A stretch of DNA of 64,000 nt from Clostridia bacterium. GTDB taxonomy: Bacteria; Bacillota; Clostridia; Christensenellales; Borkfalkiaceae. Positions 17 through 35,824 of the stretch are shown piece after piece. The first letter of the stretch is position 1. The number at the start of each line of letters is the position of its first letter. A program made the translations under genes and the position numbers. Under the pieces are notes generated by a model that saw nothing but the letters and a program-made list of their open reading frames with translations, searched no databases and was not told the origin of the DNA. The DNA is taken from NCBI GenBank assembly GCA_017467265.1, contig JAFTSO010000050.1, positions 11,532-75,531 on the forward strand. The letters run 5' to 3'.

Positions 17-3000
17 ATGAAAGGGAAGAAGATTCTTTCATTATTGTTAGGTTTGTTTTTCGCGCAGAACTTTGCAGTAGCTTGTGCGAAGGACAATAAA
101 GACGCCGCCACGTTAAATTCGACCAGCAATATTGTGGACGTGGAGGACGTGACGGAGAAAGATCCCGAGAAGGAAACGGTGACGGGGAACGGCGGCACGG
201 AAGCGCCTACACAATATATGAAAGCGGAGACGTTGGACGAACAGTTTTCTAACGCCTTAACGCAGAAGTATTTGAAGACGACGGAGATGGACAGACTCTC
301 TTCGTTGGGAGTTTCCGCAGATGACTACGTCAACGTCATCGTCACGTTGAAGGGCGACAACCTTCTCGATCGTTATTTGGATGCAAATTTTGGCGGTGAA
401 GTGGCAGAATACGTTGCGACGGACGGTAGCTCCGCTCGTCAAGATATGCTTACGACACAGAACGCAATTAAGCAGAGCATCGCAGAAATCGATGCAGGGG
501 CGGAATTTTTGTATTCTTATACGTTGGCGCAGAACGGTTTTGCAGCGCGCGTGCGTTATGGTGCGCTGGACGAAATCAAGCAGATTTCGTCGGTAGAGAG
601 CGTGACGTTGTCCGAACGATATGCAACGCCCGACGGCAGCGAAAAATCGTTGTTCACGTCTTCGACGGGTAGCGCGACGGAGGGAACGGGAACGTCCGTT
701 TTGCCCGACGACGAATACCTTGGCGAAGGCACGCTGATCGCGGTGATGGATACGGCGTTGGATACGACGCACCCCGCTTTTGCAGGCGATTGCATCGATA
801 TGGCAAAGGCGAAGGTTTCGAGCAAAGACGTCGCTACGATCCTGGAAAGCACCGACGCGTTCTACTGGGACTATACGTATAATTACAACAGCACGAAGCC
901 CCTTTTGACGGCGGAAGACGTATATATTAATAATAAACTCGTCTTTACGTATGACTACGGTAATAAGGACGCTGACGTAAAACCTTATCAAGGTTTTGGC
1001 AACGAGCTCGAACATGGTACGCATACGTCGGGTATTGCCGTTGGGTATGACGAAGCGGCAGGCTATTGCGGCGTAGCACCGATGGCACAGCTCGCATTTA
1101 TGAAGGTTTTCTACGAAGACTTTACGAACGGAATTGTGTATTCGGAAGACATCTATATTGCGGCGGCAATCGAAGACAGTATTATGCTGGGCGTGGACGC
1201 GATTAACCTGAGCTTGGGCGCGGCGCGCGGTTTCTCCGTGGATAATACTTCCGTAAATTATATTTATCAATATTGCTATTATGCAGATCTTGTTGGTATC
1301 AGCGTACAGGCGTCGGTGGGCAACAGTTTTACGGCGGCGTACGACGGCTTGACGGGGGACTACCCTGCAATTTGGATGCCCGACTACGGTGCAGCGAACT
1401 CGCCTGCGACGTTCGACAGCACGCTCGCGATCGGTAGCTATAACGGTACGAACGTCAACCAGTATTACGCGCACTTTAACGAAGGCACGGAAAATAGCTG
1501 CAACCTTTACTACACCGATCCCGAAACGGGGGCGTTTATCGATACGCTCGGCGAAGGCACGTACACGTGGGTGTACGTGGACGGCGACGGTACATACGAA
1601 GATATGAAAGCAGCCGACGTCAAGGGCAAAATCGTTTTGGTTAAGCGCAATGACAGATTAGACGCAGTGCAACAGATGCTCAACGCACAGCGTTTGGGCG
1701 CGATTGCTATTCTCTTCTCGGATGCGGATTACCGTATGGTTTGCACGACGGAATGTAAGATTTTGAATCCCTTGCCTTACGCGGCGATGGCGTTGGTAGA
1801 TGCAGAACGTCTGTTCTCGCTCGGCGGTGGTACGGTGCGTATCGCAAAAAATCAAATCCGTCATAATTTGATGAGCGCGTTTAGCAGCTGGGGCACGACG
1901 AATACGCTGACTTTGAAACCGGAAGTGGTAGCGGTCGGCGGAAACGTATATTCTTCGTTGGTATCGGCAAACCATTACGGTTCGGTAGCGCAATATTACT
2001 CTCACGATTACGGTTATTTGTCTGGTTCGTCGATGGCAGCGCCTGCGGCGACGGCATACGTAGCGCGTTTGCGTCAGGCGTTTGAACAGCGGTATCCTGA
2101 TTTGAGTGATCGCGAACTTTCCGCTCTCGTTTCGCAGATAATAATGAGCACGGCAAAGCCGTTGACCGATTTGAACGATACATTGTATTCGCCCCGTTAT
2201 CAGGGTGCAGGTGCGATCGATTACGAAGGGGCGTTGACGGCGGACGAATACCTGTCCGTGACGGGCAGCAAGAAACCCAAGATCGAGCTGGGCGAAGATC
2301 CCGACAAGACGGGGGAATATTTCCTGCACTTTAACATCAACAATTTGTCTGTAGACGCGCAAACGTACGTACTTTCAATGAACGTTCTTACCGATTCCCT
2401 TTGTGCAGACGGCAAGACGGTGTCCTTGATTGCGCATACGTTGCACGATTACACGGCGAGCGTTGCGGTAAACAACGGCGTATATGATGCAACAACAAAC
2501 AGTGTGATCGTGGACGGGGAAAGCTCCGCTACGATCGCTATCAAGCTCACGCTTGGCAACGATAGCAAAGCCTATTTGGATCAATTCGATAATGGTACAT
2601 ACGTCGAAGGGTTTGTGCGCCTTCAAAACGGCGCAAGCGAACTCTCGCTGCCCTACCTTGCTTTCTATGGCGACTGGGAAGAAGCGCCTATGATGGATAA
2701 GACCATCTACGAAGACGAAGAAGGCTACGTGTTCGAATCGATGATCATCGGTACGTATAACGGCGGTTTCTCGTCGGCGGCACTCGGTCAATATCTGTAC
2801 GTCGTACCCGAAGGGTATGAAGAAATCGGCTTTGATGAAAGATTGATTTCTATCGGTTCGGCGACGGGCGGTTTCAACGCGATTTCTTCGCTGTACGTGG
2901 GCTTGATGCGCCACGCGGACAGCTTGGAATTCTATATTATGGACGCTGCGACGGGCGAAATTTACGAATATAACAGCTTGGAGCAGATCGGCAGAGCGAG

Positions 3001-6000: not shown

Positions 6001-8320
6001 ACCAGCAACGCTCTTTATCTGTCCTTTGAACGCAAAAGCGGATACGCTGGTTATCGGGGAAGAATTTGAAGAAATTCCTGCAAACTTCTTCCAGCTGACA
6101 TCGAATATTCGCAAGATCGTCGTACCCGAAACGGTGAAGACGATCGGCGCAGGCGCGTTTAGCTATAGCCGCGTGGAAGAAGTGGAATTTGCAGCGGATT
6201 CGCCCGTACAATTTTCGGGCTATTCGGAAACCAACCTCTTTGACGGTTGCGAACAGCTGACGAAAGTGGTACTTCCTGAAAACCTGAACTGCATTACGGC
6301 GCAGATGTTCTACGGCTGTATCAACCTCGAAGAAATCGTTCTTCCCGAATCGGTGAAGACGATTTACGACGGCGCGTTCTACGGCTGTGAAAAACTGAAA
6401 AATATCAATCTCGAACACGTAGAAAACATTGAAGGCTCGGCGTTTGGCTACTGCTTATCGCTCGAAAAGCTGAACATCGGTTCGGTGACGAATTCGATTT
6501 GCTTTGATTTGAACTACACGGCGTTCGAAGGTTGTAGGGGGTTGACCGAAATCACGGTAGATCCTCAAAACAAGATGTTCAAGAGTATCGACGGCGTGCT
6601 GTTCGATAAGAAGGGTTCGGTGTTGTACGTATATCCTGCGGCGAAAGCTGGCAGCGAATATTCTATTCCCGAAGGGGTGACCAAGATTGCGGAATTTGCA
6701 TTTGGCGAAAACCGCAACTTGAAGAAAGTGGTATTGCCCAACACGCTCGCGGTTGTCGGCGCGGCTGCTTTCTATAAGACAGCGCAGCTGGATACGTACG
6801 TATTCCTCAGTGAAAAAGCTCCCGTTCTCGAAGGGCAATACAGCACGATGTACGGTTTGACGTTGTATATGAATTTCTTGGATATTTCGCAGGTATATTT
6901 CGATTATCCCCTGTATCTCTACCATAAAGAGGGAGCAACGGGCTACGATATGTTCCTGTATAGAGAATTCTTCTACGAAGCGAAGACGTTGGAAGACGTC
7001 GAATACGTACCTTCTCCCGATCAGCCGATCGAAGATTGCACGGACGGCGCAACGGGTAAGGACGGCGAAATCGAAACCGATTACGTGGTGAGATTTACCG
7101 CATACGTGGAAGAATTGAAGGAAAGTGCGCTTGACGGGTTGAAGGCGAAACTCGACGCGTTGGTGGATCAATTTGAAACGGAATACGACGCGTTCTTTGA
7201 TATGTTCGCAGACGATCAAAAGGCGCAGGAGAGTTTCTACAATTCTTACGTCGCCGAGGCGGATAAGCTCTACCAGATGGACGTAGAATTGTACGCGGCG
7301 CGCTGGGTGAGAATTCACGAAGTAATCGAGCTGATTGCCGATCTGAAAACGACGTACACGTACAGCGAAGAAGGGCTGGAAACTTTGGACACGATCGCGT
7401 ACTCCACGCAATACATTCTTGTTCGCTCGTACACGTTGGAAGAGATCGAAAAGAACTACGTATATTATAGAGATTTTGTTTTGGGTGTGCCCAAGGCAGA
7501 CGAAGAACAGGCGTTCAGCGAATATCTGACGACGGTAAAGGCAGATATGGAAACGGGCTACGAAACCTTCTTGGCAGAAAAATCTTCGCTCTATGACGAA
7601 GACGTTTTGGAAGAAATCGAAATCGAATACACTGACGTGGTGACGAGAGTGGCACAGGCGAAATCGAGATCGCTTATCGAAGAACTTCTGGACGGCTGGG
7701 ATTATTTCCTTGCGAACGTTGTGACAGCGGAAAACAGAGCGGCGTTCGAGACGGAAAAGGCGGCGATCATCGCGACCTTGGACGATTTCAAGGAAGAAGA
7801 TTACGAATACGCGCTGTGGCTGGTGATGAAGGAATACAAAGAAGACCAGCTGGGGCTCGTGGAAAGTATGTTCGTGCTCGACGAAGTTCGTAAGACGGTA
7901 GAATTTACGTACAACGAATTGGCGTCGCAGGAATCGAAATTGCAGTCGAGAAAACAGGCGGCGCTGAACGATTTCGATACGTTCATTGAATATTACAATA
8001 TGTATTCGTACCTGTACGACGCGAATATGAAGGAACTTCGCCTGATTGTTGCGGAAGAGATCGAAAAGATCGAGAACGTGACGACGGTAGCGGAAGTTGC
8101 AGACGCGTTAGACGCAGGGTTCGACCGCGTATGGAAATACTTTGAATATCATCAAAAAGCATACACCGAATACCGCCGTGCGTTGGAAGCGTTTGCAGCG
8201 TTGTCCGACGAGGACAAATCGGCGGCTATGGCAGAACTGAACGCAATCTCTTACCGTGTGGCAACCAACAGCGACAAGATTATCGCGCTCATCGAAAAAT
8301 ATTGTGGGGAAAAGGCGTAA
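17..8320 (+). CDS. Giant secreted/cell-surface S8 (subtilisin-family) serine peptidase of the cell-envelope-proteinase / C5a-peptidase type, fused to a BspA-type leucine-rich-repeat array and an acidic helical C-terminal region
   Basis: Uninterrupted 2767-codon ORF with AGGAG upstream of the ATG. N-terminal signal peptide with a possible lipobox (FAVAC). I9-like propeptide region. S8 triad motifs VMDTALD (D245), HGTHTSG (H333) and GSSMAAP (S672), with a PA-like insert (KGKIVLVKRN...GAIAILF) between His and Ser. YVEGFVRL...LPYLAFYGDW motif as in lactocepin/ScpA-type enzymes. Long LRR array. No C-terminal TM segment or LPXTG. Confidence 0.9.
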   Translation: MKGKKILSLLLGLFFAQNFAVACAKDNKDAATLNSTSNIVDVEDVTEKDPEKETVTGNGGTEAPTQYMKAETLDEQFSNALTQKYLKTTEMDRLSSLGVSADDYVNVIVTLKGDNLLDRYLDANFGGEVAEYVATDGSSARQDMLTTQNAIKQSIAEIDAGAEFLYSYTLAQNGFAARVRYGALDEIKQISSVESVTLSERYATPDGSEKSLFTSSTGSATEGTGTSVLPDDEYLGEGTLIAVMDTALDTTHPAFAGDCIDMAKAKVSSKDVATILESTDAFYWDYTYNYNSTKPLLTAEDVYINNKLVFTYDYGNKDADVKPYQGFGNELEHGTHTSGIAVGYDEAAGYCGVAPMAQLAFMKVFYEDFTNGIVYSEDIYIAAAIEDSIMLGVDAINLSLGAARGFSVDNTSVNYIYQYCYYADLVGISVQASVGNSFTAAYDGLTGDYPAIWMPDYGAANSPATFDSTLAIGSYNGTNVNQYYAHFNEGTENSCNLYYTDPETGAFIDTLGEGTYTWVYVDGDGTYEDMKAADVKGKIVLVKRNDRLDAVQQMLNAQRLGAIAILFSDADYRMVCTTECKILNPLPYAAMALVDAERLFSLGGGTVRIAKNQIRHNLMSAFSSWGTTNTLTLKPEVVAVGGNVYSSLVSANHYGSVAQYYSHDYGYLSGSSMAAPAATAYVARLRQAFEQRYPDLSDRELSALVSQIIMSTAKPLTDLNDTLYSPRYQGAGAIDYEGALTADEYLSVTGSKKPKIELGEDPDKTGEYFLHFNINNLSVDAQTYVLSMNVLTDSLCADGKTVSLIAHTLHDYTASVAVNNGVYDATTNSVIVDGESSATIAIKLTLGNDSKAYLDQFDNGTYVEGFVRLQNGASELSLPYLAFYGDWEEAPMMDKTIYEDEEGYVFESMIIGTYNGGFSSAALGQYLYVVPEGYEEIGFDERLISIGSATGGFNAISSLYVGLMRHADSLEFYIMDAATGEIYEYNSLEQIGRASYIESSGQMYPVIQGLNYGSGLPNNTELNIVIRAGLDNMGNTVNDNDTTSFRIVIDSESPRFYTDSVGIYQENGRTYLSVNVIDNNMVTSLWLYTYTADGYQEALGEPLPVYPWEFKPKEKNTLVYDITDYAEKFNSNVIGFIIEDAAMNRASYSLTVHADFEKDEEPTDEVVYAKELTYDKTVNVASGYSVDLGIKTVPANASYKLTVVPVRGYTGSAIVDEERQLVVARNPGYVRIQIESGDICVTSDMYVYVNDGEWVYEVVAKGNNWIKSYYVEDDMVRTESDTSFNYDPENGQTTEYYMVSVYRGEGSHVVVPSSYTDADGVEHEVVAIGMNAFFACQNMYSVTIPNTIRHIGFQAFIYNFALTEVIFEENSQLRTIESFAFAYDESLRGVEIPKSVNWIADRAFDDNYSMTSLTFEAHTVAEGASLLYIGSTAFDETQITELVFPETLVTLGAAFAGAKIKRIVLPENMTAVASRAFEGCAYLEEVVLPDGIETISMSAFEGCTSLKKINMPSSLTQIGALAFAGCSSLTSIELPDTVEKIGSGAFGYCTSLVSVKFGDGLKEIDDEAFLGATSLRTVYFDRYTKLETLGTDLFYGCMSFTDFSVHPLNENFMSDDGILYRKIPGSTHYQLHTVPIAKRIDTFLVRPDVAEINDFAFAYHTEMQAVLFPAGGALYSIGDYAFTGCSSLKTVGLQNATALLEMGDYVFAYCTSLTDIVLPNNITKIPSYAFYYCVYLERVEFNEQLSSIGSNAFAYCIRFQGTDGEGTLKLPAALSTLNAQAFVANRQLEKVDLSDCVGLSGKSNYWGEYGFAECTNLREVILPTTANMIFDGMFAYCTSLEKINLEETQIDNIRTYAFYGCESLEHVVLPETIETIYAQVFVNTAIKTLTIPDMGENGRIMSKAFALNPYLETLYLPDTFVELEAYVFAETGLKEVHIPSSITRSNFDHRAFYLCSKLERFIVDEDNEYFGVTKEGILYTKEYKQTSISGDDIDVPATLFICPLNAKADTLVIGEEFEEIPANFFQLTSNIRKIVVPETVKTIGAGAFSYSRVEEVEFAADSPVQFSGYSETNLFDGCEQLTKVVLPENLNCITAQMFYGCINLEEIVLPESVKTIYDGAFYGCEKLKNINLEHVENIEGSAFGYCLSLEKLNIGSVTNSICFDLNYTAFEGCRGLTEITVDPQNKMFKSIDGVLFDKKGSVLYVYPAAKAGSEYSIPEGVTKIAEFAFGENRNLKKVVLPNTLAVVGAAAFYKTAQLDTYVFLSEKAPVLEGQYSTMYGLTLYMNFLDISQVYFDYPLYLYHKEGATGYDMFLYREFFYEAKTLEDVEYVPSPDQPIEDCTDGATGKDGEIETDYVVRFTAYVEELKESALDGLKAKLDALVDQFETEYDAFFDMFADDQKAQESFYNSYVAEADKLYQMDVELYAARWVRIHEVIELIADLKTTYTYSEEGLETLDTIAYSTQYILVRSYTLEEIEKNYVYYRDFVLGVPKADEEQAFSEYLTTVKADMETGYETFLAEKSSLYDEDVLEEIEIEYTDVVTRVAQAKSRSLIEELLDGWDYFLANVVTAENRAAFETEKAAIIATLDDFKEEDYEYALWLVMKEYKEDQLGLVESMFVLDEVRKTVEFTYNELASQESKLQSRKQAALNDFDTFIEYYNMYSYLYDANMKELRLIVAEEIEKIENVTTVAEVADALDAGFDRVWKYFEYHQKAYTEYRRALEAFAALSDEDKSAAMAELNAISYRVATNSDKIIALIEKYCGEKA
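3981..6810 (+). repeat. BspA-type (LRR_5-like) leucine-rich repeat array inside the first protease (approximate bounds)
   Basis: About 940 aa of reiterated ~23-25-aa units of the form 'I(P/G)xxAFxxCxxLxx(I/V)xLPxxLxxIG' (e.g. IGSGAFGYCTSLVSVKF, IGDYAFTGCSSLKTVGL). Bounds were read by eye from the translation. Confidence 0.75.
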
Positions 8321-8334
8321 GGAGGTAAACAGAT

Positions 8335-15861: not shown

Positions 15862-16559
15862 TGAATAAGATGAAAAAAATTCTGACGGTCATACTCGCTT
15901 TCTTTACGTTGCTATTATTTGGTGCGTGCGGTACTACGGACAGCCAAGTCCCTGCGGATTATTCCGTTTGCGTGACCTATCATTTTAATGGCGGCAAAAT
16001 GGAAAAATACGACGACGCGACGCAGTTGACGGTGTTTTACAAGCCGCAATCGCTCATCGCAGAGCCGGGTGTGACGACCAAAGAGCTGGAAGAAGTAAAA
16101 CGTAGCGGTTGCTTTGCGGCAGGTTGGTACTATGCAAAAACAGATGAAACGGGTGCGATTGTCCTCGATAACGAGGGCAATCCGATCCCCGGGGACGTAG
16201 CCTTTGATTTTAAGAACGAAGTGGTCACCAAGGACATTACGCTCGTGATCAAATGGAGTGAAAAAATCAAGGTTATCTTCAAGAATCTTTACTCGACGCA
16301 GACCAAAGAATATACCAAGGATTACGAATCGGGCGACGCGTTCAAACGCCCCGGTCTTGAAACCTCGGCAAAGGGCGGCAAGGTAGAGAATTACTACTGG
16401 TCGTACGATGCGGCAACGGATACGTATTCGGATATGATTGTGTTTGGCTCGCTCACGTATGACGACTTGAAGGCGCAGGTAGGGGAAAACCCTGAAAAAG
16501 ACGGTGAATACACGATTTTGTACGTTTACGTAAAGATCGTGCCGGAAACGGAAGAATAA
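15861..16559 (+). CDS. Small lipoprotein with a Listeria-Bacteroides (Flg_new-type) repeat-like segment
   Basis: The start overlaps the protease-2 stop (TAATG), and AAAGGAGG lies upstream. Signal peptide with lipobox LLFGAC. Segment VTYHFNGGKM...CFAAGWYYAKTDETG resembles the repeat family also present in the third protease. Confidence 0.8.
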   Translation: MNKMKKILTVILAFFTLLLFGACGTTDSQVPADYSVCVTYHFNGGKMEKYDDATQLTVFYKPQSLIAEPGVTTKELEEVKRSGCFAAGWYYAKTDETGAIVLDNEGNPIPGDVAFDFKNEVVTKDITLVIKWSEKIKVIFKNLYSTQTKEYTKDYESGDAFKRPGLETSAKGGKVENYYWSYDAATDTYSDMIVFGSLTYDDLKAQVGENPEKDGEYTILYVYVKIVPETEE

Positions 16560-16581
16560 TAAAAAAGGAAGGATAAAAATT

Positions 16582-19371: not shown

Positions 19372-19384
19372 GGAAGGACGAAAA

Positions 19385-19412
19385 CCGAGGCAAGGAGAAA
19401 ACCTTGCCTCGG
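19385..19412 (+). promoter_or_regulatory. Intercistronic stem-loop directly after the binding-protein gene (11-bp perfect stem, 6-nt loop, no T-run)
   Basis: ccgaggcaagg-agaaaa-ccttgcctcgg is followed by gaaaaaagg, not a U-tract. It lies between the SBP stop (19371) and the permease start (19432). Confidence 0.6.
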
Positions 19413-19431
19413 GAAAAAAGGAAGATGATTT

Positions 19432-20430
19432 ATGGTTAAATACATAGTAAAAAGATTGCTGATGTCGATTTTGATCTTGTTCGGCGTATCGATTAGTATT
19501 TATTTCTTGGTTCTCTTGATGCCGACAGACTTTGTCGATCAAAAATTTGCCTCGCAGATCGCGCAAGGCACGATGGACAAAGCCGCTATTCAAGAGATGA
19601 AGGAAAAATACGCCTTGGCGGACAAATCGTTTGTGGGCATCCTGAAAGGCTATACCAAATGGCTGGGTGGCGTATGCACGGGGGATTTGGGCAGATCGTT
19701 CAAATACGACGCTCCCGTTACGACCGTCATCGTAGAAAATATGGGCATTTCGTTCGGGATCTCCTTTGTGGCACTCGTGTTGCAATTTGTAATCGCGATC
19801 CCCTTGGGGATCAAAGCGGCGTATCATCAATACGGTAAAATCGATTATACGGTGACCGTGTTGACGATGATGGGTATTTCGTTGCCTACTTTCTTCTTGG
19901 CAACGCTCTTGATTCAGGTGTTCTCAATCAATCTTGGCTGGTTCCCCGTAAACGGTTTGGTCACGGCGAATTTGCCCGTAGATACCACGCCGTTTATGCG
20001 GTTTATGGACGAAGTTTGGCATCTCGTTTTGCCGATGACGACGCTCGTAATCCTGTCCATCGGCGGTTTGATGCGCCACACCCGTACGAATATGCTGGAA
20101 GTGCTCAATGCCGATTATATCCGTACTGCAAGAGCGAAAGGCTTGTCTGAAAGAACGGTCGTGTATAAGCACGCGTTCAAGAACACGATGATTCCTATCG
20201 TCACGATGACGGCAGGGATTATCCCCAGCCTGTTCGGCGGTGCGATGATTACGGAAACGGTATTCGGTATCCCCGGTATTGGTAAAATGGCGTACGACGC
20301 CTTGAAACTCGGCGACGTTCCCTTCGTTATGGGATACAATATGTTCCTTGCTATCTTGACGGTAATCGGGACGTTGTTGTCCGATTTGATGTATATGGTC
20401 GTTGACCCTCGCGTCAAGCTGACGAAGTAA
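19432..20430 (+). CDS. ABC transporter permease, OppB/DppB-like
   Basis: N-terminus MVKYIVKRLLMSILILFGVSI is typical of the family. Multi-TM protein with the EAA-type loop region (ADYIRTARAKGLSERTVVYKHAFKN). Confidence 0.9.
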   Translation: MVKYIVKRLLMSILILFGVSISIYFLVLLMPTDFVDQKFASQIAQGTMDKAAIQEMKEKYALADKSFVGILKGYTKWLGGVCTGDLGRSFKYDAPVTTVIVENMGISFGISFVALVLQFVIAIPLGIKAAYHQYGKIDYTVTVLTMMGISLPTFFLATLLIQVFSINLGWFPVNGLVTANLPVDTTPFMRFMDEVWHLVLPMTTLVILSIGGLMRHTRTNMLEVLNADYIRTARAKGLSERTVVYKHAFKNTMIPIVTMTAGIIPSLFGGAMITETVFGIPGIGKMAYDALKLGDVPFVMGYNMFLAILTVIGTLLSDLMYMVVDPRVKLTK

Positions 20431-20442
20431 GGAGGTGCTGAA

Positions 20443-21510
20443 ATGGAAGAAGAAAAGAAGATGATAGAGGAGCAGGCTGCTCCCGTACAACAGGAAACGA
20501 AGGAAGAAGGATTCCTTGCAGATAATATCCGTGTCCTTTCGCCTGGGAAACTCGTCGCAAGACGTTTTTTCCGTTCCCGTTTGTCCATCGTTGGTTTGGT
20601 GGTGATTCTGTCGCTGTTCTTGATCTCGTTCATTGGGCCTATTTTCTCGCGTTGGGGCGAGAAAACGCAGGATCTTTCGGGCGGCGCGGCGATCCACGGC
20701 GTCACGGGCTTTGAATTCAAAGTGCCTGATAGCGACGAAGTTATCCACGCGTATATTGAAACGATTTCCTATCCGCAGTTGAATAAAAACCAAACGTCGC
20801 CTTCTGCCGATCATTGGCTGGGTACGGACGATATGGGTATGGACATTTTTACCCGACTTATGTACGGCGGACGTATTTCGTTGACGCTGGGCTTTATCGT
20901 TATCATACTCGAAACAATCATAGGTATTATCCTAGGCGGTTTGGCAGGGTATTTCGGAAAATGGGTAGATAACATCATTATGCGTATCGTTGATATTTTG
21001 AGCTGTATTCCGTCGTTGCCGATCATGCTGATCATCAGCGTTGTTTTGGATTCGAACGGCGTACCGGGGCGATACAAAATCTATTATATGATGGTCATGA
21101 TGACGGCGCTAGGCTGGTCAGGTATAGCTCGTCTTGTTCGCGGTCAGATCCTTATGCTGCGAGAGCAGGAATATATGGTGGCGGCAGAGGCGTGCGGTAT
21201 TCCCGTAAGACAGCAGATTTTCAAGCATCTCGTTCCGAATATTATGCCGCAGCTGATCGTGACGATGACGTTGGGCTTGGGTTCGATTATTTTGACGGAA
21301 GCAACGCTGAGTTTCTTAGGCTTGGGCGTAGAATATCCCAGCGCGTCGTGGGGCACGATGATCGAAGCGGGCGCAAATCCCGACGTTTTGCGTAGCGGCT
21401 ATTGGAATATGTGGATTCCTGCGGGTATATGTATCGTTTTGGCGGTACTCGCGTTCAACTTTATCGGCGACGGATTGCGTGACGCGTTCGACCCGAAAAT
21501 GAAGAGGTGA
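20443..21510 (+). CDS. ABC transporter permease, OppC/DppC-like
   Basis: Multi-TM protein with the motif HWLGTDDMGMDIFTRLMYGGRISL and the EAA-type loop MVAAEACGIPVRQQIFKHLVPN. GGAGG lies upstream. Confidence 0.9.
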   Translation: MEEEKKMIEEQAAPVQQETKEEGFLADNIRVLSPGKLVARRFFRSRLSIVGLVVILSLFLISFIGPIFSRWGEKTQDLSGGAAIHGVTGFEFKVPDSDEVIHAYIETISYPQLNKNQTSPSADHWLGTDDMGMDIFTRLMYGGRISLTLGFIVIILETIIGIILGGLAGYFGKWVDNIIMRIVDILSCIPSLPIMLIISVVLDSNGVPGRYKIYYMMVMMTALGWSGIARLVRGQILMLREQEYMVAAEACGIPVRQQIFKHLVPNIMPQLIVTMTLGLGSIILTEATLSFLGLGVEYPSASWGTMIEAGANPDVLRSGYWNMWIPAGICIVLAVLAFNFIGDGLRDAFDPKMKR

Positions 21511-21516
21511 TCGGAA

Positions 21517-22833
21517 ATGGCGGAAAATAAACACGTGCATCGCATTAGCGCCAAGGAATTGCGCGCAACAGCGAAGCAAAATATAAAAATCACCAAGCGT
21601 TATGAAAAGCTGAAAAAACGTAAATATATCCCCGAGAGCGAATACGTGACGGAGATGAAAGACAGTAATAACGTTCTGGAAATCGAAAATTTACACACCT
21701 ATTTCTTTACGGACGTGGGTACGGTTAAGGCAGTCAACAGTGTTTCGTTCAACATACCGCAGGGGGCTACCGTCGGCATCGTCGGCGAGAGCGGCTGCGG
21801 TAAGAGCGTGACGTCGCTCTCGGTAATGGGCTTGGTACAAGGCCCTACTGGGCAGGTCGTTGACGGCGAAATCCGTTTTAAGAGCGAAGTGTTAAAGACG
21901 GACGAAAAAGGGAAATATATCCCCGTTTACGAGCTGGACGAAAACGGCGAGAAGATCGTGCTCTCCGAAAAGATTAACAAGCGTACGGGCGAAAAGATCG
22001 TCACGTACAAACAAAAACAGGACGAAACGGGCGGCTATATCTTTGAAAAAGAATCGAAAGTATATAATTTGGTGCGTGCGCCGAGAAGCGAGCTCGCCAA
22101 AATTCGCGGCAGAGAAATCGCGATGATTTTTCAAGAGCCGATGACTTCGCTCAATCCCGTGTTCACCATCGGACAGCAGCTCGACGAAGTGTACCTGCTG
22201 CACAATCCCGGCGTATCGAAAGAGGGTGCGAAAGCGCGTACGTACGATATGCTCAAACTGGTAGGGATTATCCCCGAAAACGTTTACACCCGTTATCCGC
22301 ACGAGTTGTCGGGCGGTATGAGACAAAGAGTCGTGATCGCGATGGCGTTGATGTGCAATCCGCGCCTGATCATCGGTGACGAGCCGACGACGGCGCTGGA
22401 CGTGACGATTCAGGCACAGATCTTGGAATTGTTGCGCGACATCAAAACGAAAATCAACGGTTCGATTATGCTCATCACGCACGATTTGGGCGTGATTGCG
22501 GAGATGGCGGATTTCGTCGTCGTTATGTACGCAGGCAGAGTGATCGAAACGGGTACGGCGATGGAGATTTTCTGCAATCCTTTGCACCCGTACACCATCG
22601 GTCTGCAAAAGAGCAAGCCCGTCGTGAACCAAAACAAAGAACGTCTGTACAGTATCCCCGGCAACGTTCCCAACCCCATCGAAATGCCTACGCATTGTTA
22701 TTTTAAGGACCGTTGCGATCGCGCTTGTGAAAAGTGCTCGGGCGAATACCCTGCATACGTGCAGGTATCTCCGACGCATACCGTAGCTTGCTATCTGTAT
22801 CAGGATCAGAAAAAGGAGGGAGCAGATGTCTAA
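21517..22833 (+). CDS. ABC transporter ATP-binding protein, OppD/DppD-like, with an N-terminal extension and an insertion after Walker A
   Basis: Walker A GESGCGKS, signature LSGGMRQR, Walker B LIIGDEPTTALD, H-loop ITHDL. About 55 extra N-terminal residues, plus an extra Lys/Glu-rich segment (KSEVLKTDEKGKYIPVYELDENGEKIV...) before the Q-loop (IAMIFQEP). Cys-rich C-terminal tail. GAGGTGA lies upstream of the ATG. Confidence 0.9.
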   Translation: MAENKHVHRISAKELRATAKQNIKITKRYEKLKKRKYIPESEYVTEMKDSNNVLEIENLHTYFFTDVGTVKAVNSVSFNIPQGATVGIVGESGCGKSVTSLSVMGLVQGPTGQVVDGEIRFKSEVLKTDEKGKYIPVYELDENGEKIVLSEKINKRTGEKIVTYKQKQDETGGYIFEKESKVYNLVRAPRSELAKIRGREIAMIFQEPMTSLNPVFTIGQQLDEVYLLHNPGVSKEGAKARTYDMLKLVGIIPENVYTRYPHELSGGMRQRVVIAMALMCNPRLIIGDEPTTALDVTIQAQILELLRDIKTKINGSIMLITHDLGVIAEMADFVVVMYAGRVIETGTAMEIFCNPLHPYTIGLQKSKPVVNQNKERLYSIPGNVPNPIEMPTHCYFKDRCDRACEKCSGEYPAYVQVSPTHTVACYLYQDQKKEGADV

Positions 22834-23881
22834 TCAAGTAGAAGAAATGCAAAACGAAGTCGCTCCTTCCGTAGCGGAACAGGCGACGGCAAATACGCCG
22901 ATTTTGGAAGTACATAACTTAAAGAAATACTTCCCCGTAGAATCGAACTTTTTCGGCAAACCGACGAGATATCTTCGCGCGGTGGACGACGTTTCGTTCA
23001 CGCTGCAAAGGGGTAAAACGATCGGTATCGTCGGGGAGTCGGGCTGCGGTAAAACGACGATGGGCAGAAGTATTTTGAAACTGCACGACATTACGGGCGG
23101 ACAGATTTTGTTCGACGGCGAAGATATTACGAAATACACGCGTTCGCAGATGCGTCCTTTCCGTAAGCGTATGCAGATCATTTTCCAAGATCCGTATTCT
23201 TCCCTGTCGCCACGATTGAACATCGGTGAAATCATCGGCGAAGCGGTGAAGGTGCACAACATTGTGCCTGCGAGCAAGCACAAGGAATACGTGCGCGAAA
23301 TTATGCAAAAATGCGGTCTGCAATCGCATTTCTACGATCGCTACCCGCACGAATTTTCAGGCGGTCAAAGACAGCGTATTTGTATTGCGAGAGCGATCGC
23401 TCTGCAACCGGAGCTGATCATCTGCGACGAGCCGGTGTCGGCACTCGACGTTTCGATACAGGCGCAGATTATCAACCTTTTGAAAGATATGCAAAAGGAA
23501 ATGAACATCGCATACGTGTTCATTTCGCACGACCTTTCGGTGGTCGAGCATATTTCGGACGAAATCGCGGTAATGTATCTGGGGAATATGGTGGAGAAAG
23601 GTCCGAAAACGAACATTTTCGCCAACCCGTTGCACCCTTATACGCAGGCGTTGTTCAGCGCGATCCCCAATCCCGATCCGCGAGTGAAAATGCACCGTCA
23701 GATTTTGAGAGGGGATATTCCCAGCCCGTCCAACCCGCCCTCGGGGTGTAAATTCCATACCCGTTGCGAAAAATGTATGGAGATCTGCAAAACGCAAGTC
23801 CCCGTTTCGCGCGAGGTAGAGCCCGAGCATTTCGTTGCTTGTCATTTGTATAACGACGCAAAGGGAAATGCCGATGAATAA
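22826..23881 (+). CDS. ABC transporter ATP-binding protein, OppF/DppF-like
   Basis: Walker A GESGCGKTT, signature FSGGQRQR, Walker B LIICDEPVSALD, H-loop ISHDL. Cys-rich C-terminal tail (CKFHTRCEKCMEICK...VACHLY). 8-nt overlap with the upstream ATPase gene. Confidence 0.9.
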   Translation: MSNQVEEMQNEVAPSVAEQATANTPILEVHNLKKYFPVESNFFGKPTRYLRAVDDVSFTLQRGKTIGIVGESGCGKTTMGRSILKLHDITGGQILFDGEDITKYTRSQMRPFRKRMQIIFQDPYSSLSPRLNIGEIIGEAVKVHNIVPASKHKEYVREIMQKCGLQSHFYDRYPHEFSGGQRQRICIARAIALQPELIICDEPVSALDVSIQAQIINLLKDMQKEMNIAYVFISHDLSVVEHISDEIAVMYLGNMVEKGPKTNIFANPLHPYTQALFSAIPNPDPRVKMHRQILRGDIPSPSNPPSGCKFHTRCEKCMEICKTQVPVSREVEPEHFVACHLYNDAKGNADE

Positions 23882-24206
23882 CACCGAAAAGGGAACTTTG
23901 GGAAACGAGGAAGAAAAGAAAGATCTGGAACAGGAAGCGCAAACGCGCGAAGAACAGGACGAAAAGCCCGAAAAGGAAGAGATTATTTACATTGACGATC
24001 ACCACACCGTTGCCGATATGAACGTCGAGGGTTTGCCTTGGTACGTAAAGGGCGGTCACAATCGTGAAAAGAAAGTAAACAAACTCTCGTTCAAGGAAAA
24101 ATTCGCCATTGTTTTCGGCGCGTACCGCGCTTATCTTCCGATCATTTTGGCAATAGGTAGCGGATTTTTGTTCGTATTTTTGTTGCTGAAATTGATTTGG
24201 GGCTAA
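23874..24206 (+). CDS. Small hypothetical protein: acidic Glu/Lys-rich N-terminus and a single C-terminal TM helix
   Basis: The ATG at 23874 overlaps the OppF-like stop (ATGAATAA). 110 codons. The C-terminal hydrophobic stretch is AYLPIILAIGSGFLFVFLLLKLIWG. I recognise no family. The ORF track lists a longer version starting at 23835. Confidence 0.5.
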   Translation: MNNTEKGTLGNEEEKKDLEQEAQTREEQDEKPEKEEIIYIDDHHTVADMNVEGLPWYVKGGHNREKKVNKLSFKEKFAIVFGAYRAYLPIILAIGSGFLFVFLLLKLIWG

Positions 24207-24213
24207 CGTTTGG

Positions 24214-27200
24214 ATGTTGATTATGCAATGGAAAAAACTTAAAAACATACTGTTAAAAACGGCGATCGGCTGTGTGGTATGCGGCGCTCTGGGCGTTGCG
24301 GCACGCAACCTGCCGTTTTTAACGCAAACACAGGCAGAGGAAAACGTTTTGGCGACCTCTGCTTTGCCTTTTGACCAAGAGCCGCTCTTGCCGTCAGGGA
24401 CGGCGGAAGGGGCGTTTTCGGATACGTACGCGGCGAACCAAGAAAAATATCTGTATTCGCGTATCGGGCTGCAAAAGGACGGCGTGTCCGTGCGCGATAT
24501 TACCAAAGGAGCAACGGAAAAGCACCGTTCTCGCGTTGTCGTGATCGACAGCGGCGTGAAATACGATCACGAAGATTTTTTGGCGGCGGACGGCTCGATT
24601 CGGTTTAGTCCGCTCAGCTATAACGTGACGATGAAAAAGACGGTGGCAGAGGCAGGCTATGAGATTTTGGCGGACAGCGAAATCGTCAACGGACACGGCA
24701 CGCAGGTATGCGGTCAGATCTTCGCGGTGGGCGATAACGGCGTCGGGATCGCAGGGCTGGCGGAAGACGTCGAGCTGATTTTCGTCAAGGTCACCCCCAC
24801 TTCGGAAGGCGGCTACGACGGGTATGAGATGTTGGAAGCGATGGAATATGCCGCAACGCTGAACGCCGACGTTGTCAATATGTCCTTGGGCAACTTTTTG
24901 ACGAACAACCCCTATGCGACCGTTCTGCGCAGAATCCGCAACAGCGGCGCGGTGATCGTGTCAGCCGCAGGCAACGTTTCGAAGAGTGATTTACATTATC
25001 CGTCCGCGGATAACAGCGTAATCGGGGTGGGTGCGTTTACCAGCCTTTTGAATTACAGCGAAAGCGCGACGGAATATCCCTTGGCATCCTATTCGACGTT
25101 TGGGGATAAGAACGTACAGATTTGCGCGCCAGGCGGTTTTTACACTACGAAGATGGACGGGGGGTATGCCTACGGCAACGGCACGTCCTTGGCAACGCCG
25201 ATCGTCACTTCGGCGGTAGCGCTGTACCGTTCGCTCTATCCCGAATCCACGGTCGAGGAAGTGGAGGCGGCTCTCTTCGCATCTGCGAACGATCAAGGGG
25301 ATAAGGGCAAAGATTACAAATACGGCTACGGCGGTTTGAACGTGTACGATTTCCTGTTCGGGGAAAAGGGCACGGTCACGTTCGATTACGGAACGGGCAA
25401 AACGGAAACGCGCGCGATTTGCAAAGGAAAGGCGCTGCAAGAATATCCCTTCCCCAGCGTTTCGGGCGCGCCGACGGGTAAAGAATTCGGCGGTTGGTAT
25501 TTGGACGTAGGGCGTACGCGTCCGTTGACCTATTACAAAGAAAATTTGACCGACGGAGCGACGGTATATGCAAAATGGCAGGACGTAGGGGCGGACGGGC
25601 TTTCGCGCGGCGAGGCGCAGGGCGTCGGCGCGCTCGATTATACGTTCACGACGAGTGGAAATATTGCGATTAAAGGGTACTATGGCGGCGGCGAGCGTAT
25701 TATTTTGCCAAACATGCTGACGGTGGAAGGCAGGGAGTATAGCGTGACGGAGATCGCAGCAAGAGCCTTCCAAAAACACGCGACGTTGACAAAGATTGTT
25801 CTGCCGACGACGGTGACGACAGTGCGCGAATACGCATTTGCGGACGATTACGAATACGTATATCTCCCGTCCACTGTAAAAAAGGTGGAAAAGCACGCCT
25901 TTGAGAACGCGGAAACCGTTTTGTATTTGCCAACGGAAGACGGCACGGAGAGCTTTACCATCGGCTGGAATACAAACGCTACGTTGACGACGGTGACGGG
26001 CGTGGAGCAGGTGACGATGCAGGACGGGTTGGAGCTGGTACTCCAAAACGGCGCATATACGTTGCTTGGATATGAAGGGCAGGAGAGAGAAATCGATTTG
26101 ACGGCGGAATATCCGATTATCGAGATTGCGCCGCATGCGTTTGAAAACAACGGCTATATCCAGAGCGTTTCCGCGCCTGACGTGGTGACGATCGGGGACA
26201 GAGCGTTTTACGGCTGCACCGCCTTGACGGAAGTAAAAATGCCCAAGGTGGAAACGATCGGCAATTCGGCGTTTTATAGCTGCGGTGCGTTGACGTACCT
26301 GCAATTCCCTAAAACGCTGCGCGAGATCGGGGATTCGGCGTTCGCAAAAAACGCGTCGTTGTTCCGCTTTGCAATGCCCGACGGCATTGTGCTGGAAAAA
26401 ATCGGGGATTATGCCTTTGAGGGCTGTACTTCGCTCGAATATATAGATTGCAGCAACGCGCAGACATTGACGTACGTGGGCGCAAATGCCTTTTTTGGCG
26501 CGAAAAACGTGTTCGTTGCATATTTACCCGACTCGGTGCAAACGATCGGTTATAACGCGTTTGGCGGCTTGCAATCGCTGCATGCGGCAAGATTGCCTTT
26601 CCTTGGCAGGGGCAGAACGGATACCTATACGCATTTTGGGTACGCGTTCGGTGCGAGCAATATCGAACTGCAAGGCTCGGTTGTTTTAGAGAATTTGCAA
26701 TCTCTCTTTATCGGCGGCGATGTGCAGGACGGCGCGTTGAAGGGCGTTAGCGGCTTGACGATTTTTGCGGAAGGGCGCTGCTCTGCTGTGGACGGTTGCA
26801 CCGTGTACGAGGGGGGCAGGTACGCGTTTATTCGTATGTATGCAGACGAAATTCTCGTTGGATTGCTTGGCGGCGAAGAGGGCGTGGAAGTGTCGGCGGC
26901 GACTTTGCAATCGGCGTTCCGTATGCCGCAAGGCTATCGAGCAACGGGCTGGAGTGCGGACGTGTCCGTGTTCCCTGCGACGGGCGAGCACGTTTGGACG
27001 ATGACGGCGGATATGGAAGAATACGCGATCGTGTTTCAAGACGAAACGGGCAAAGTGCTCTCCGAGCAAACGCGCGTGTTCGGCGAAAGACCGACAGAAC
27101 CGACTGCGCCGACAAAGGCGGCTACGGCGCAATACGAATATGTATTTACAGGCTGGAACGCGCCCGTTGCGCCTGCGACGGAGAACGTCGTTTATACGCC

Positions 27201-28548
27201 CGTATATCAAGCGGTGGAAAGATCGTACGTCGTGTCTTTCTATAACGGCGACGAGCTGATCGCGCAGGCGGAATACACGTACGGCGCAACGCCGCTCGCC
27301 CCTGTACTTGCCGACCGTCCGCTCGATGAAACGTATTATGAAAAATTCATCGGCTGGGATCAGGAGCTTAGTACGGTACAGGGCAACGCCGAATATCGGG
27401 CTTGCTTTGAAAAGACGTACGTGCTCTATCTCGTCCGTTTTACGTACGAGAACGGCAAGACGTTCTGTGAGCAAAGCTATCATTACGGCGAAACGATCGT
27501 GCCGCCGAGCACGGATAGAGCGCCTGACGAGCAATACACGTATGCGTTTATCGGCTGGCAGGAAACTTTCCAGCCCGTCACCAAGGCTGCGGAATATACC
27601 GCACTGTATGAAAAAACGTTGCGCGAATATACCGTGCGTTTTGTCGATTACGACGGCACGGAAATCAGCGCAGAGCGCTACACTTACGGCGAAATGCCCA
27701 CGCCCCCGACCGCGCCCGAACGCGCGGAAGAAGACGGATTCCGCTTTGAATTTATCGGCTGGGATACGGACGTGAGCGCGGTGGACGGCGACAAGACGTA
27801 CACGGCGACGTACAAAGCCCTTTCGTCGAAGATTTTGGTGCGCTTTGTCAATTATGACGGCACGTTGCTTTCCGAAACGGAATACGAAAAGGGTGCGACG
27901 GTCGTGCAGCCCGAAACGCCGAAGAGAACGGTGGATAGCAAGAGCTATTATTACGAATTTAGCGGCTGGGATCGCGACGTGACGGCGGCGACGGAAAACG
28001 TCACCTACAAAGCGACGTTTGAGCGTAAATATTACGCATACACCGTGCGTTTTGTTGATTTTGACAATAGTTTGATAGCGGAAAAGACGTACCGCTACGG
28101 TGCGACGGTAGAGATTCCCAACGATCCCGTTCGCGACGGATATACGTTCGTCGGTTGGGACAAAGAGATCACAAAAGTGGAAACGGACGCCGTGTATAAG
28201 GCGGTGTACGAGTCTATCGCTGGCGGTGACGATTCGGAGAGCGACAGCTCGGAAGAAGAACCGTCGGAGATCCCTGACAGCTATATTTCGTCCGAAATTT
28301 CTTCGGAAGATAGCAGCGAAGTTTCTTCAGAAACGGAATCTTCGGAAACAGAATTTTCCGATTCGGCAGAAGAATCTTCGTCGAGCGCGTCTGTACCGAG
28401 TTTAGATAGTTCGAGCCAGACAGGGGCAGGCAGTGCGAAGAAAGGCGGCTGTGGCGGCACGGTTTGGGCGGCACACGGGGGCTTGTTGGCGGTGTGTGCG
28501 CTTGGCGTGCTGGCAGGAATTTTCCTTCGCAAAAAGGAAAGACGTTGA
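24214..28548 (+). CDS. Third surface S8 serine peptidase (compact subtilisin-type domain) with Flg_new-type repeats, a BspA-type LRR array, a Ser/Glu-rich linker and a C-terminal TM anchor
   Basis: 1444-codon ORF. Signal peptide. Triad motifs VVVIDSGV (D112), NGHGTQVCG (H161) and GTSLATP (S325), plus oxyanion-type SAAGN. The start could instead be the ATG at 24223. Confidence 0.9.
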   Translation: MLIMQWKKLKNILLKTAIGCVVCGALGVAARNLPFLTQTQAEENVLATSALPFDQEPLLPSGTAEGAFSDTYAANQEKYLYSRIGLQKDGVSVRDITKGATEKHRSRVVVIDSGVKYDHEDFLAADGSIRFSPLSYNVTMKKTVAEAGYEILADSEIVNGHGTQVCGQIFAVGDNGVGIAGLAEDVELIFVKVTPTSEGGYDGYEMLEAMEYAATLNADVVNMSLGNFLTNNPYATVLRRIRNSGAVIVSAAGNVSKSDLHYPSADNSVIGVGAFTSLLNYSESATEYPLASYSTFGDKNVQICAPGGFYTTKMDGGYAYGNGTSLATPIVTSAVALYRSLYPESTVEEVEAALFASANDQGDKGKDYKYGYGGLNVYDFLFGEKGTVTFDYGTGKTETRAICKGKALQEYPFPSVSGAPTGKEFGGWYLDVGRTRPLTYYKENLTDGATVYAKWQDVGADGLSRGEAQGVGALDYTFTTSGNIAIKGYYGGGERIILPNMLTVEGREYSVTEIAARAFQKHATLTKIVLPTTVTTVREYAFADDYEYVYLPSTVKKVEKHAFENAETVLYLPTEDGTESFTIGWNTNATLTTVTGVEQVTMQDGLELVLQNGAYTLLGYEGQEREIDLTAEYPIIEIAPHAFENNGYIQSVSAPDVVTIGDRAFYGCTALTEVKMPKVETIGNSAFYSCGALTYLQFPKTLREIGDSAFAKNASLFRFAMPDGIVLEKIGDYAFEGCTSLEYIDCSNAQTLTYVGANAFFGAKNVFVAYLPDSVQTIGYNAFGGLQSLHAARLPFLGRGRTDTYTHFGYAFGASNIELQGSVVLENLQSLFIGGDVQDGALKGVSGLTIFAEGRCSAVDGCTVYEGGRYAFIRMYADEILVGLLGGEEGVEVSAATLQSAFRMPQGYRATGWSADVSVFPATGEHVWTMTADMEEYAIVFQDETGKVLSEQTRVFGERPTEPTAPTKAATAQYEYVFTGWNAPVAPATENVVYTPVYQAVERSYVVSFYNGDELIAQAEYTYGATPLAPVLADRPLDETYYEKFIGWDQELSTVQGNAEYRACFEKTYVLYLVRFTYENGKTFCEQSYHYGETIVPPSTDRAPDEQYTYAFIGWQETFQPVTKAAEYTALYEKTLREYTVRFVDYDGTEISAERYTYGEMPTPPTAPERAEEDGFRFEFIGWDTDVSAVDGDKTYTATYKALSSKILVRFVNYDGTLLSETEYEKGATVVQPETPKRTVDSKSYYYEFSGWDRDVTAATENVTYKATFERKYYAYTVRFVDFDNSLIAEKTYRYGATVEIPNDPVRDGYTFVGWDKEITKVETDAVYKAVYESIAGGDDSESDSSEEEPSEIPDSYISSEISSEDSSEVSSETESSETEFSDSAEESSSSASVPSLDSSSQTGAGSAKKGGCGGTVWAAHGGLLAVCALGVLAGIFLRKKERR
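25636..26780 (+). repeat. BspA-type LRR array inside the third protease (approximate bounds)
   Basis: Units such as IAARAFQKHATLTKIVLP, IGDRAFYGCTALTEVKMP, IGNSAFYSCGALTYLQFP and IGDYAFEGCTSLEYIDC. Confidence 0.7.
27016..28215 (+). repeat. Six tandem ~67-aa protein repeats (Listeria-Bacteroides / Flg_new-like) in the third protease
   Basis: Each unit reads roughly 'Y(T/V)VRF(V)xxDGxxxxxxxYxYGxxxxxPxxPxxxxxxxYxYxFxGWDxxVxxVxxxxxYxAxY'. Examples: YTVRFVDYDGTEISAERYTYGEMPTPP...FEFIGWDTDVSAVDGDKTYTATYK and YTVRFVDFDNSLIAEKTYRYGATVEIP...YTFVGWDKEITKV. Confidence 0.8.
28432..28545 (+). other. C-terminal tripartite signal of protease 3: SAKKGGCGG motif, hydrophobic helix, basic tail
   Basis: Translation GSAKKGGCGGTVWAAHGGLLAVCALGVLAGIFLRKKERR. 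The Cys codon is at 28450-28452, 31 residues from the C-terminus, and is preceded by a ~60-aa Ser/Glu-rich linker. Confidence 0.6.
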
Positions 28549-28752: not shown

Positions 28753-28784
28753 AAGCGCATATTTTGCAAACGAGGCAATTCTTT

Positions 28785-35806: not shown

Positions 35807-35824
35807 CGTTTGCAAGGGGATAAA

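Follow-up and report, generated by a model that had tools for sequence, protein, structure and literature searches.

A locus of three giant proteases and an Opp-type importer

The stretch of DNA analyzed here (the window) comprises 64,000 nucleotides (nt) from a Clostridia bacterium of the Christensenellales (assembly GCA_017467265.1, contig JAFTSO010000050.1, positions 11,532 to 75,531). Between positions 17 and 28548 it holds a block of ten open reading frames (ORFs), all on the + strand, in which genes for three giant S8-family proteases (P1, P2 and P3) accompany those of an Opp-type ATP-binding cassette (ABC) importer. The ORF listing and our own check of the junctions agree on this block, as the original prediction had described it. 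Since the window opens at the ribosome-binding site (AGAGGAG) and spacer ahead of P1 (1-16, read from the sequence), the P1 promoter and any genes 5' of it lie outside the view.

The first gene (17-8320) encodes P1, a predicted surface protease of 2767 amino acids (aa) assigned from Pfam, motifs and the span of its leucine-rich repeats (LRRs). The second (8335-15861) encodes P2, a surface protease of 2508 aa, assigned from Pfam, a PDB sequence match, a transmembrane (TM) helix and the adjacency of its orthologues. Next come a 232-aa lipoprotein with the lipobox LFGAC, here called lipoprotein X (15861-16559; translation and an iterated hidden Markov model, HMM), and a 929-aa substrate-binding lipoprotein of the SBP_bac_5 family, cluster C (16582-19371; Pfam, PDB profile, AlphaFold2 model and Foldseek). 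A G+C-rich intercistronic stem-loop (19385-19412; fold energy) separates the latter from the genes for an OppB-type permease of 332 aa with six hydrophobic segments (19432-20430; Pfam BPD_transp_1 and BPD_transp_1_N), an OppC-type permease of 355 aa (20443-21510; OppC_N and BPD_transp_1), an OppD-type ATPase of 438 aa (21517-22833; ABC_tran and oligo_HPY) and an OppF-type ATPase of 351 aa (22826-23881; Pfam and NCBIfam). The block closes with a 110-aa tail-anchored membrane protein (23874-24206; translation and HMM) and P3, a surface protease of 1444 aa (24214-28548; Pfam, repeats and TM helix). An intrinsic terminator (28558-28589; sequence and fold energy) follows.

The gaps at successive junctions of the block are 14, -1, 22, 60, 12, 6, -8, -8 and 7 nt, so the tight packing in the original prediction stands, with 60 nt as the largest gap. 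Its three start/stop overlaps also proved exact: TAATG at 15859-15863, ATGTCTAA at 22826-22833, where the oppF start overlaps the oppD stop by 8 nt, and ATGAATAA at 23874-23881, where the start of the tail-anchored protein gene overlaps the oppF stop. The hairpin and T-run at 28558-28589 are real, with a stem AAAACCGTTCC / GGGGCGGTTTT, a 5-nt loop and then seven T (-19.8 kcal/mol, z = -3.8), and form the sole good terminator on the + strand of the locus. It is literally true that no hairpin with a T-run precedes it, but that statement passes over the strong stem-loop without a T-run at 19385-19412. The tight and overlapping junctions, together with the terminator after P3, are indirect signs that the ten genes may be co-transcribed. 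Patterns resembling internal promoters or terminators were dropped as evidence on a single transcript, given that their counts within the locus are about those of shuffled controls and carry no weight either way.

In a near-identical contig (L093), whose P1 is 99% identical, the cluster runs on upstream. There the sequence that begins the window follows a 96-nt spacer containing a hairpin, ahead of which lie two more co-directional + strand genes for LRR_5 surface proteins. Position 17 is therefore not established as the start of the cluster. The exact look-up of the window P1 returned no record, and the 99% identical P0121 was used for this upstream view. The two additional genes (569-9170 of that contig) encode a 1482-aa product with LRR_5 and a collagen-like stretch and a 1323-aa product with four Flg_new repeats and LRR_5. 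A promoter-like TTGACG-17-TATAAT lies at 245-274 there, and hairpins follow both genes.

Rfam, searched over the whole window at its gathering thresholds, gave no match, and we therefore recognize no riboswitch or leader in the window at those thresholds. A mobile element or recent transfer was also considered and rejected, given the even G+C content across the window, the housekeeping flanks (MetRS, KsgA, TatD) and the conserved synteny.

Domain organization of the proteases

P1 consists of a lipoprotein-type signal peptide, a pro-region, an S8 domain with a PA insert, an fn3_5 domain, an LRR_5 array of about 920 aa and a C-terminal region. In P2, the signal peptide, pro-region and S8 domain with PA insert are followed by an Fn3-like domain, Big_2, the LRR_5 array, Big_3, an acidic Ser-rich linker, a Gly-Cys motif, a TM helix and a KKKK tail. 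P3 has a signal peptide, a compact S8 domain (residues 108-373) without a PA insert, one Flg_new repeat, LRR_5, six tandem Flg_new repeats, an acidic Ser-rich linker, a Gly-Cys motif and a TM anchor. The compact S8 domain, LRRs and six Flg_new-type repeats originally described for P3 are thus borne out, with one further repeat after the S8 domain. Lacking PA and fn3_5, P3 falls outside the subgroup of cell-envelope proteinases and C5a peptidases.

Pfam scores for Peptidase_S8 are 123.3 bits in P1, 147.9 in P2 and 151.7 in P3 (cut-off 21.8), while PA scores 44.7 bits in P2 and 25.3 in P1, just over its cut-off of 23.9, and fn3_5 scores 36.1 bits in P1 (cut-off 27.6). LRR_5 is matched in nine stretches of P1 (496 bits), nine of P2 (540 bits) and three of P3 (135 bits), against a cut-off of 27.7; by motif, the repeats span residues ~1328-2247 in P1 and ~1438-2160 in P2. 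The families named in the original prediction (S8, PA, fn3_5, Big_2, LRR_5, Flg_new, SBP_bac_5 and oligo_HPY) were all found, with Inhibitor_I9 below its cut-off (19.8 bits in P1, under the gathering score). None of the three proteases reaches an NCBIfam equivalog or subfamily cut-off. The NCBIfam SGO_0316/SGO_0317 LPXTG family is matched at 227 bits by P1 and 231 by P2, against a cut-off of 1400, in partial matches over the catalytic region only.

The catalytic triads are intact: D245 (MDTA), H333 (HGTH) and S672 (GSSMAAP) in P1; D230 (DTG), H304 (HGLH) and S672 (GTSMATP) in P2; and D112 (DSG), H161 (HGTQ) and S325 (GTSLATP) in P3. The same holds for 70 of 71 P2-type orthologous ORFs, the sole exception being cut by a contig end, and the idea that these are pseudo-proteases was rejected accordingly. 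P1 and P2 are 30% identical over 1218 aa, the YVEGF...LAFYGDW motif included, in agreement with their earlier description as paralogs that share a catalytic Ser672. Residues 215-929 of P2 align with the structures of C5a peptidase, SpyCEP and cell-envelope proteinase at E = 3e-62 to 3e-56, the best PDB sequence match being C5a peptidase 7edd (E = 3e-62). In that alignment the Asp, His and Ser motifs correspond column for column, and the PA insert and Fn3-like YxEGF...FxG are in register. The window P2 has no fn3_5 match, yet it aligns to the Fn3 region of C5a peptidase through residue 929, and fn3_5 is present in P2 orthologues. The lactocepin/C5a peptidase-type organization proposed for these proteins is therefore upheld by the structure-set alignment of P2 and by the Pfam PA and fn3_5 matches of P1.

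Placement of these proteins at the cell surface is deduced from the lipoboxes of P1, lipoprotein X and the binding protein and from the C-terminal TM anchors of P2 (2476-2503) and P3 (1415-1440), each followed by a basic tail. The lipobox Cys of P1 is kept in its orthologues P0121-P0127. An LPXTG signal is absent from P1, P2 and P3, as is LPXT[GAS] from the last 60 residues of all 44 full-length P2-type ORFs.

The ends of the proteases have some further features. Residues ~2270-2767 of P1 (window 6800-8320) form an acidic helical region of ~500 aa, rich in Glu, Ala, Leu and Tyr, for which we found no family match and no C-terminal anchor; its final residues (ISYRVA...LIEKYCG) are kept in orthologues P0121-P0127. 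At the C-termini of P2 and P3 (window 15700-15861 and 28400-28548), the Gly-Cys motifs KKNGCKG and KKGGCGG lie between the linker and the TM helix, and ends with linker, Gly-Cys motif, TM helix and basic tail also occur in L001, L002, L003, L008, L011, L019 and L032. This tripartite arrangement is reminiscent of C-terminal sorting signals such as MYXO-CTERM. No NCBIfam C-terminal sorting-signal model for Gly-Cys, TM and basic tails was matched, and the motif was rejected as a general sorting signal since, in the wider set, only 9 of the 51 homologues that bear a TM helix have it ahead of that helix.

The binding protein and its ABC importer

All five parts of an Opp/Dpp-type importer score over their Pfam cut-offs: SBP_bac_5, two BPD_transp_1 proteins (one with OppC_N) and two ABC_tran proteins with oligo_HPY. 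The best solved relative of the binding protein by profile search of the PDB is Bacillus subtilis AppA (1xoc; E = 3e-16, 12% identity). AppA is likewise the top Foldseek match of the AlphaFold2 model (pLDDT, the predicted local distance difference test score, 87.8), with E = 2e-19 and a TM-score of 0.76 normalized to the target. On the evidence of the complete Opp/Dpp set, and because AppA is best by both sequence and fold, we read the system as a candidate peptide importer. Identity to any solved relative is 10-17%, and the matches by sequence and model settle the fold class of the binding protein but not its ligand class.

The binding protein is distinguished by an insert of ~220-270 aa (residues ~199-420), which lies between the parts aligned to AppA residues 117 and 216, such that ~370 profile positions stand where AppA has ~100. 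The insert is mostly helical in the model, and typical OppA/AppA proteins are without it. More than 1500 homologous proteins measuring 840-930 aa were retrieved, almost all of them from uncultured Clostridia, and a lipobox is present in 106 of 120.

OppF scores 426.7 bits on the NCBIfam subfamily PRK11308, over its cut-off of 408. The binding protein has no NCBIfam equivalog (Opp4A, 70 bits versus a cut-off of 650), the closest NCBIfam model to OppB is Opp4B (258 bits versus 450), and OppC scores 330.6 bits on Opp4C (cut-off 350). In OppD, the 137-position ABC_tran profile is stretched over residues 74-292, and the C-terminal oligo_HPY region is Cys-rich; its homologues measure 435-546 aa. The stretching reflects an insert of ~80 aa within the ABC domain (residues ~120-200, window 21700-22080), rich in Lys and Glu. 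Partial NCBIfam matches of OppD include a mycoplasma OppD model, likewise with long inserts.

Accessory proteins and an intercistronic stem-loop

Lipoprotein X is a short member of a family of Flg_new-like (beta-grasp repeat) lipoproteins, usually of 360-460 aa, whose larger members match Flg_new over its cut-off. A word-based search found only six close relatives; an HMM iterated by hand on the fetched loci (described below) revealed the family and showed that, in 71 of 72 loci, its gene is the one immediately ahead of that for the binding protein. The AlphaFold2 model of lipoprotein X (pLDDT 76) has no significant fold match in the PDB, the best being E = 8e-3, and shows a weak likeness to the InlB B-repeat; four of the five models were poor.

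The small tail-anchored protein, usually of ~90 aa, was found in 63 loci with an HMM built from the loci. Its gene is immediately 3' of oppF in 52 of 62 loci, and another five have it at a different place in the cassette. A full HMMER scan gave 115 representative clusters, all stand-alone proteins of 74-150 aa. The family consensus runs from KYVDDGHTIADMNVEGMPWY through a basic linker and ERRALIRAAFKAYLP to a TM helix at the C-terminus, and the 110-aa window protein carries the N-terminal motif YIDDxHTVADMNVEGxPWY and an amphipathic segment ERRAxIxAAxxAYLP. It has no Pfam or NCBIfam family and no signal peptide. As a basic stretch precedes the helix, the N-terminal motif is predicted by the positive-inside rule to be cytoplasmic, and the protein, coupled translationally to oppF, may contact the ATPases.

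The stem-loop at 19385-19412, between the binding-protein gene and oppB, has 11 bp with 8 G-C pairs (-22.6 kcal/mol, z = -6.8) and no U-run. Similar stem-loops of other sequence occupy the same spacer in five relatives (L001, L011, L003, L006 and L009). Stem-loops in operons for binding-protein-dependent transporters can shield the upstream mRNA or partly terminate transcription, with surplus binding protein as the outcome. By analogy, the stem-loop here probably shifts expression toward the binding protein relative to the membrane subunits.

Conservation of the linkage between protease and importer

A scan of species-representative genomes yielded at least 593 matching stretches, of which the best 80 loci were kept and searched by tblastn with parts of the window proteins. 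The kept loci carry names such as Christensenella, Christensenellaceae, Candidatus Scatosoma, Candidatus Coproplasma, CAG:727 and CAG:307, with some evident mislabels, and their hosts are sheep, roe deer, rabbit, mouse and human, in each case the gut. Among the 51 loci with both flanks visible, a P2-type protease stands directly beside the importer on the same strand in 47, and in none is it on the opposite strand. The protease is upstream in 26 loci, its catalytic region 7.7-9.4 kb ahead of the binding-protein gene, and downstream in 21, 0.5-1.6 kb past oppF. The co-occurrence of S8-LRR genes and this Opp set in related genomes, on which the original prediction staked its reading, is thus found.

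The same layout recurs in six metagenomic neighborhoods, whose binding proteins are 85%, 63%, 60%, 42%, 39% and 37% identical to that of the window: a giant S8-PA-fn3_5-LRR_5 protease, a small ORF, the long binding protein, OppB, OppC, OppD and OppF, as far as the contig allows. An ORF of ~90 aa follows oppF in three of the four that reach past it. In a neighbor-joining tree of the binding proteins, built without support values, the upstream and downstream protease orders interleave in several blocks, which suggests that the gene order shifted several times with adjacency kept.

P1-type proteins are confined to close relatives, down to 36% identity, as are P3-type genes, which follow the importer in L001, L011 and L091 and precede the lipoprotein X gene in L006. 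As both types occur only in closer relatives, the three-protease layout is an elaboration of a sub-clade upon a one-protease core. The conserved core is one P2-type protease, the Flg_new-like lipoprotein, the long binding protein (850-930 aa) with its helical insert, OppBCDF and the ~90-aa tail-anchored protein. The picture of three proteases bracketing an importer therefore describes the window and not the general layout. The linkage implied by the term self-contained module is conserved; self-containment itself is not supported, as the cluster runs on upstream in L093 and two conserved extra proteins are present that the original prediction left uninterpreted.

The cassette of lipoprotein, binding protein, OppBCDF and small protein also occurs without an adjacent protease in L021, L025 and L074. 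L021 derives from the same metagenome-assembled genome as L011 (RGIG5595), in which the protease-less cassette is a second copy beside one that has the protease.

A proposed route of protein harvesting

We consider it rather likely, if well short of certain, that the locus serves uncultured gut Clostridia, relatives of Christensenellales, as a module for harvesting protein at the cell surface. Under this scenario, the giant cell-envelope-type proteases would be tethered to the membrane, P2 and P3 by the C-terminal TM helix and P1 by N-terminal lipid, and their long BspA-type LRR arrays would hold a protein substrate or surface. The bound protein would then be cut to oligopeptides, which the unusually long lipid-anchored family-5 binding protein would capture and the OppBCDF importer take in, with the stem-loop providing for more binding protein than membrane subunits. 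Two conserved extras would belong to the same unit, namely the Flg_new-like lipoprotein encoded before the binding protein and the ~90-aa tail-anchored protein coupled to oppF. The domain content, the intact triads, the anchor signals and the adjacency conserved in two gene orders across many species are observed directly; proteolysis, peptide as the ligand and the roles of the LRR array and both accessory proteins we infer from them.

Several observations weigh against this proposal. An adjacent protease is absent in 4 of the 51 loci, no member of the rotamase/PrsA family (a PrtM-like maturase) was found among the ten locus proteins with Pfam or NCBIfam, and genes for an intracellular peptidase or a regulator are absent from the locus. 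Among solved structures P2 is closest to C5a peptidase and SpyCEP, which are specific virulence proteases and not nutritional ones. Close behind AppA, the Foldseek matches of the binding protein include NikZ, NikA, EppA and lactococcal OppA, with NikZ, NikA, EppA and a chitobiose binder at E = 1e-15 to 1e-18, and the permeases have comparable NCBIfam scores on the nickel-type models Opp2 and NikBC. Besides peptides, nickel, metallophores and further ligands are transported by systems with family-5 binding proteins and Opp-type permeases.

The virulence-type relatives raise the alternative that the proteases are chiefly factors for colonization or host interaction, with the LRRs as adhesins and the S8 domain cutting a few specific targets, while the importer only salvages peptides or is co-regulated. 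The LRR_5 regions do resemble the streptococcal adhesin HupY/LrrG, though far under its cut-off, and protease-less LRR_5/Flg_new surface proteins are encoded elsewhere, two upstream of P1 in L093 and one at 43754-45106 of the window. Adjacency in 47 of 51 loci through repeated changes of order, however, suits a direct functional link better than incidental salvage, and the alternative leaves the co-travel of lipoprotein X and the small membrane protein unexplained. We regard it as doubtful.

A further alternative is that the protease matures or sheds the organism's own surface or secreted proteins or pro-peptides and that the importer brings the peptides back for signaling or recycling. Opp systems of Firmicutes import processed signaling peptides, subtilases often process precursors (PatA/PatG-type and mycosin models match P3 weakly, far under their cut-offs), and the many giant LRR_5 and Flg_new surface proteins encoded are possible substrates. 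Against this, the locus has no RNPP-type regulator, no gene for a small secreted pro-peptide and no modification enzyme, its small conserved ORF encodes a tail-anchored membrane protein without a signal peptide, and an LRR array of 700-900 aa is hard to account for in self-processing. This explanation seems improbable. Least probable of all is that the ABC system imports something other than peptides, such as a nickel or metal chelate, a glycan or a glycopeptide fragment, in which case the protease link would not be one of substrate channeling: the nickel-type and chitobiose-binder matches and the low identity of the binding protein, with its large unmatched insert, would fit such a ligand, but the top match by sequence and fold is AppA, a nonapeptide binder, both ATPases carry the oligo_HPY C-terminal region, and the conserved adjacency of an endopeptidase is most simply explained by a peptide substrate.

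The proposed harvesting module may be taken one step further. It is conceivable, though on balance we think it unlikely, that the cassette forms a physically assembled surface machine, a Gram-positive "protein utilization locus". In such a machine the LRR array may select particular host, dietary or microbial glycoproteins, and the helical insert of the binding protein and the Flg_new lipoprotein may dock on the protease, so that peptides are handed straight to the importer. The ~90-aa protein may be a new regulatory or assembly subunit of the ABC importer, touching OppD/OppF from the cytoplasmic side. If so, the cassette could be a main nitrogen-acquisition route of a large uncultured gut order.

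Relation to known systems

The nearest functional parallel is found in Lactococcus lactis, in which the cell-envelope proteinase supplies oligopeptides to Opp (PMC7783315). The window locus shares with PrtP/PrtM and OppDFBCA the general scheme of cutting outside and importing oligopeptides (PMC7783315). In both, a large S8 protease that has a PA insert and Fn3-like domains is tethered at the surface and accompanied by a lipid-anchored family-5 binding protein, two permeases and two ATPases. In lactococci, prtP-prtM and opp sit at separate loci, whereas here dozens of species have the protease gene next to those of the importer and in the same orientation. The locus proteins include no PrtM-like isomerase, a C-terminal TM helix or an N-terminal lipid serves as anchor in place of LPXTG, and LRR_5 arrays of 700-900 aa take the place of the A, B and H domains of PrtP. 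The binding protein is also ~350 aa longer, and two extra conserved small proteins are present.

C5a peptidase (ScpA/ScpB) and SpyCEP/ScpC are the best solved-structure matches (E = 3e-62 to 1e-47), the alignment covering the catalytic domain, the PA insert and the first Fn3-like domain, with its YxEGF and FxGxF motifs. Unlike the window proteases, they are sortase-anchored virulence enzymes of narrow substrate range, measure ~1100-1650 aa and have no LRR array, and to our knowledge their genes are not linked to an Opp operon. The arrays themselves are of the same LRR_5 repeat type as in BspA of Tannerella forsythia, LrrA of Treponema denticola and HupY/LrrG of Streptococcus, and the LRR_5 regions of the window have partial matches to the HupY/LrrG NCBIfam model. 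BspA-type proteins are adhesins without a protease domain, whereas here the array is fused to an S8 module.

The importer most resembles the B. subtilis App system, from which it differs by the binding-protein insert, the OppD insert and the added small membrane protein. The polysaccharide-utilization loci of Bacteroidota offer a functional analogy only, in that they too combine surface binders, a surface hydrolase and a matching importer in one locus; here there is no SusC/SusD homology, the envelope is Gram-positive and the substrate would be protein and not glycan.

We found no description of this cassette or of an S8 and LRR_5 enzyme in the literature, in line with the earlier remark that no characterized S8 and BspA-LRR fusion of this size was known; the sole co-mention of both Pfam names concerns an LRR_5-NEAT protein. 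Source databases label the proteins "hypothetical protein", "leucine-rich repeat protein" or, at JGI, "peptide/nickel transport system substrate-binding protein". The cassette is widespread, conserved and uncharacterized, and its likeliest function is unsurprising in principle. Relatives in the Christensenellales are common in human and animal guts, almost all uncultured, and their mode of feeding is little understood. If the harvesting proposal is true, it offers the testable idea that these organisms live on extracellular protein, through very large unstudied proteases possibly acting on host or dietary gut proteins. It would also provide a natural case of a protease and an importer held together by selection, along with two new candidate accessory parts for an Opp-type transporter, one of them a small membrane protein of the kind missed by gene callers and annotators.

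Other genes in the window

After the terminator, a strong promoter-like site (28724-28752; TTTACA-17-TATAAT, 11/12 matches with an extended TG) precedes a gene for a 957-aa MacB-like protein, in which an ABC ATPase is fused to an FtsX-type permease (28724-31637 including the site). Four ORFs at 32918-36883 have no family match. They lie just upstream of a + strand run (36913-41030) encoding a GFO/IDH/MocA oxidoreductase, a DUF4127 protein (485 bits) and an N-acylglucosamine 2-epimerase family protein, whose annotations suggest a possible cluster for amino-sugar or glycan utilization. The 450-aa protein at 43754-45106 contains LRR_5 and, as a further such protein, indicates that BspA-type repeats are used repeatedly in the proteins of this genome. 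At 53863-58160, the stop of a gene for a 991-aa fusion of BcrAD/BadFG ATPase and DUF2229 (CoA-enzyme activase type) overlaps the start of the next gene, for a 441-aa DUF2229-related protein, and this pair is flanked by genes for MetRS, TatD, KsgA and a type III glutamine synthetase.

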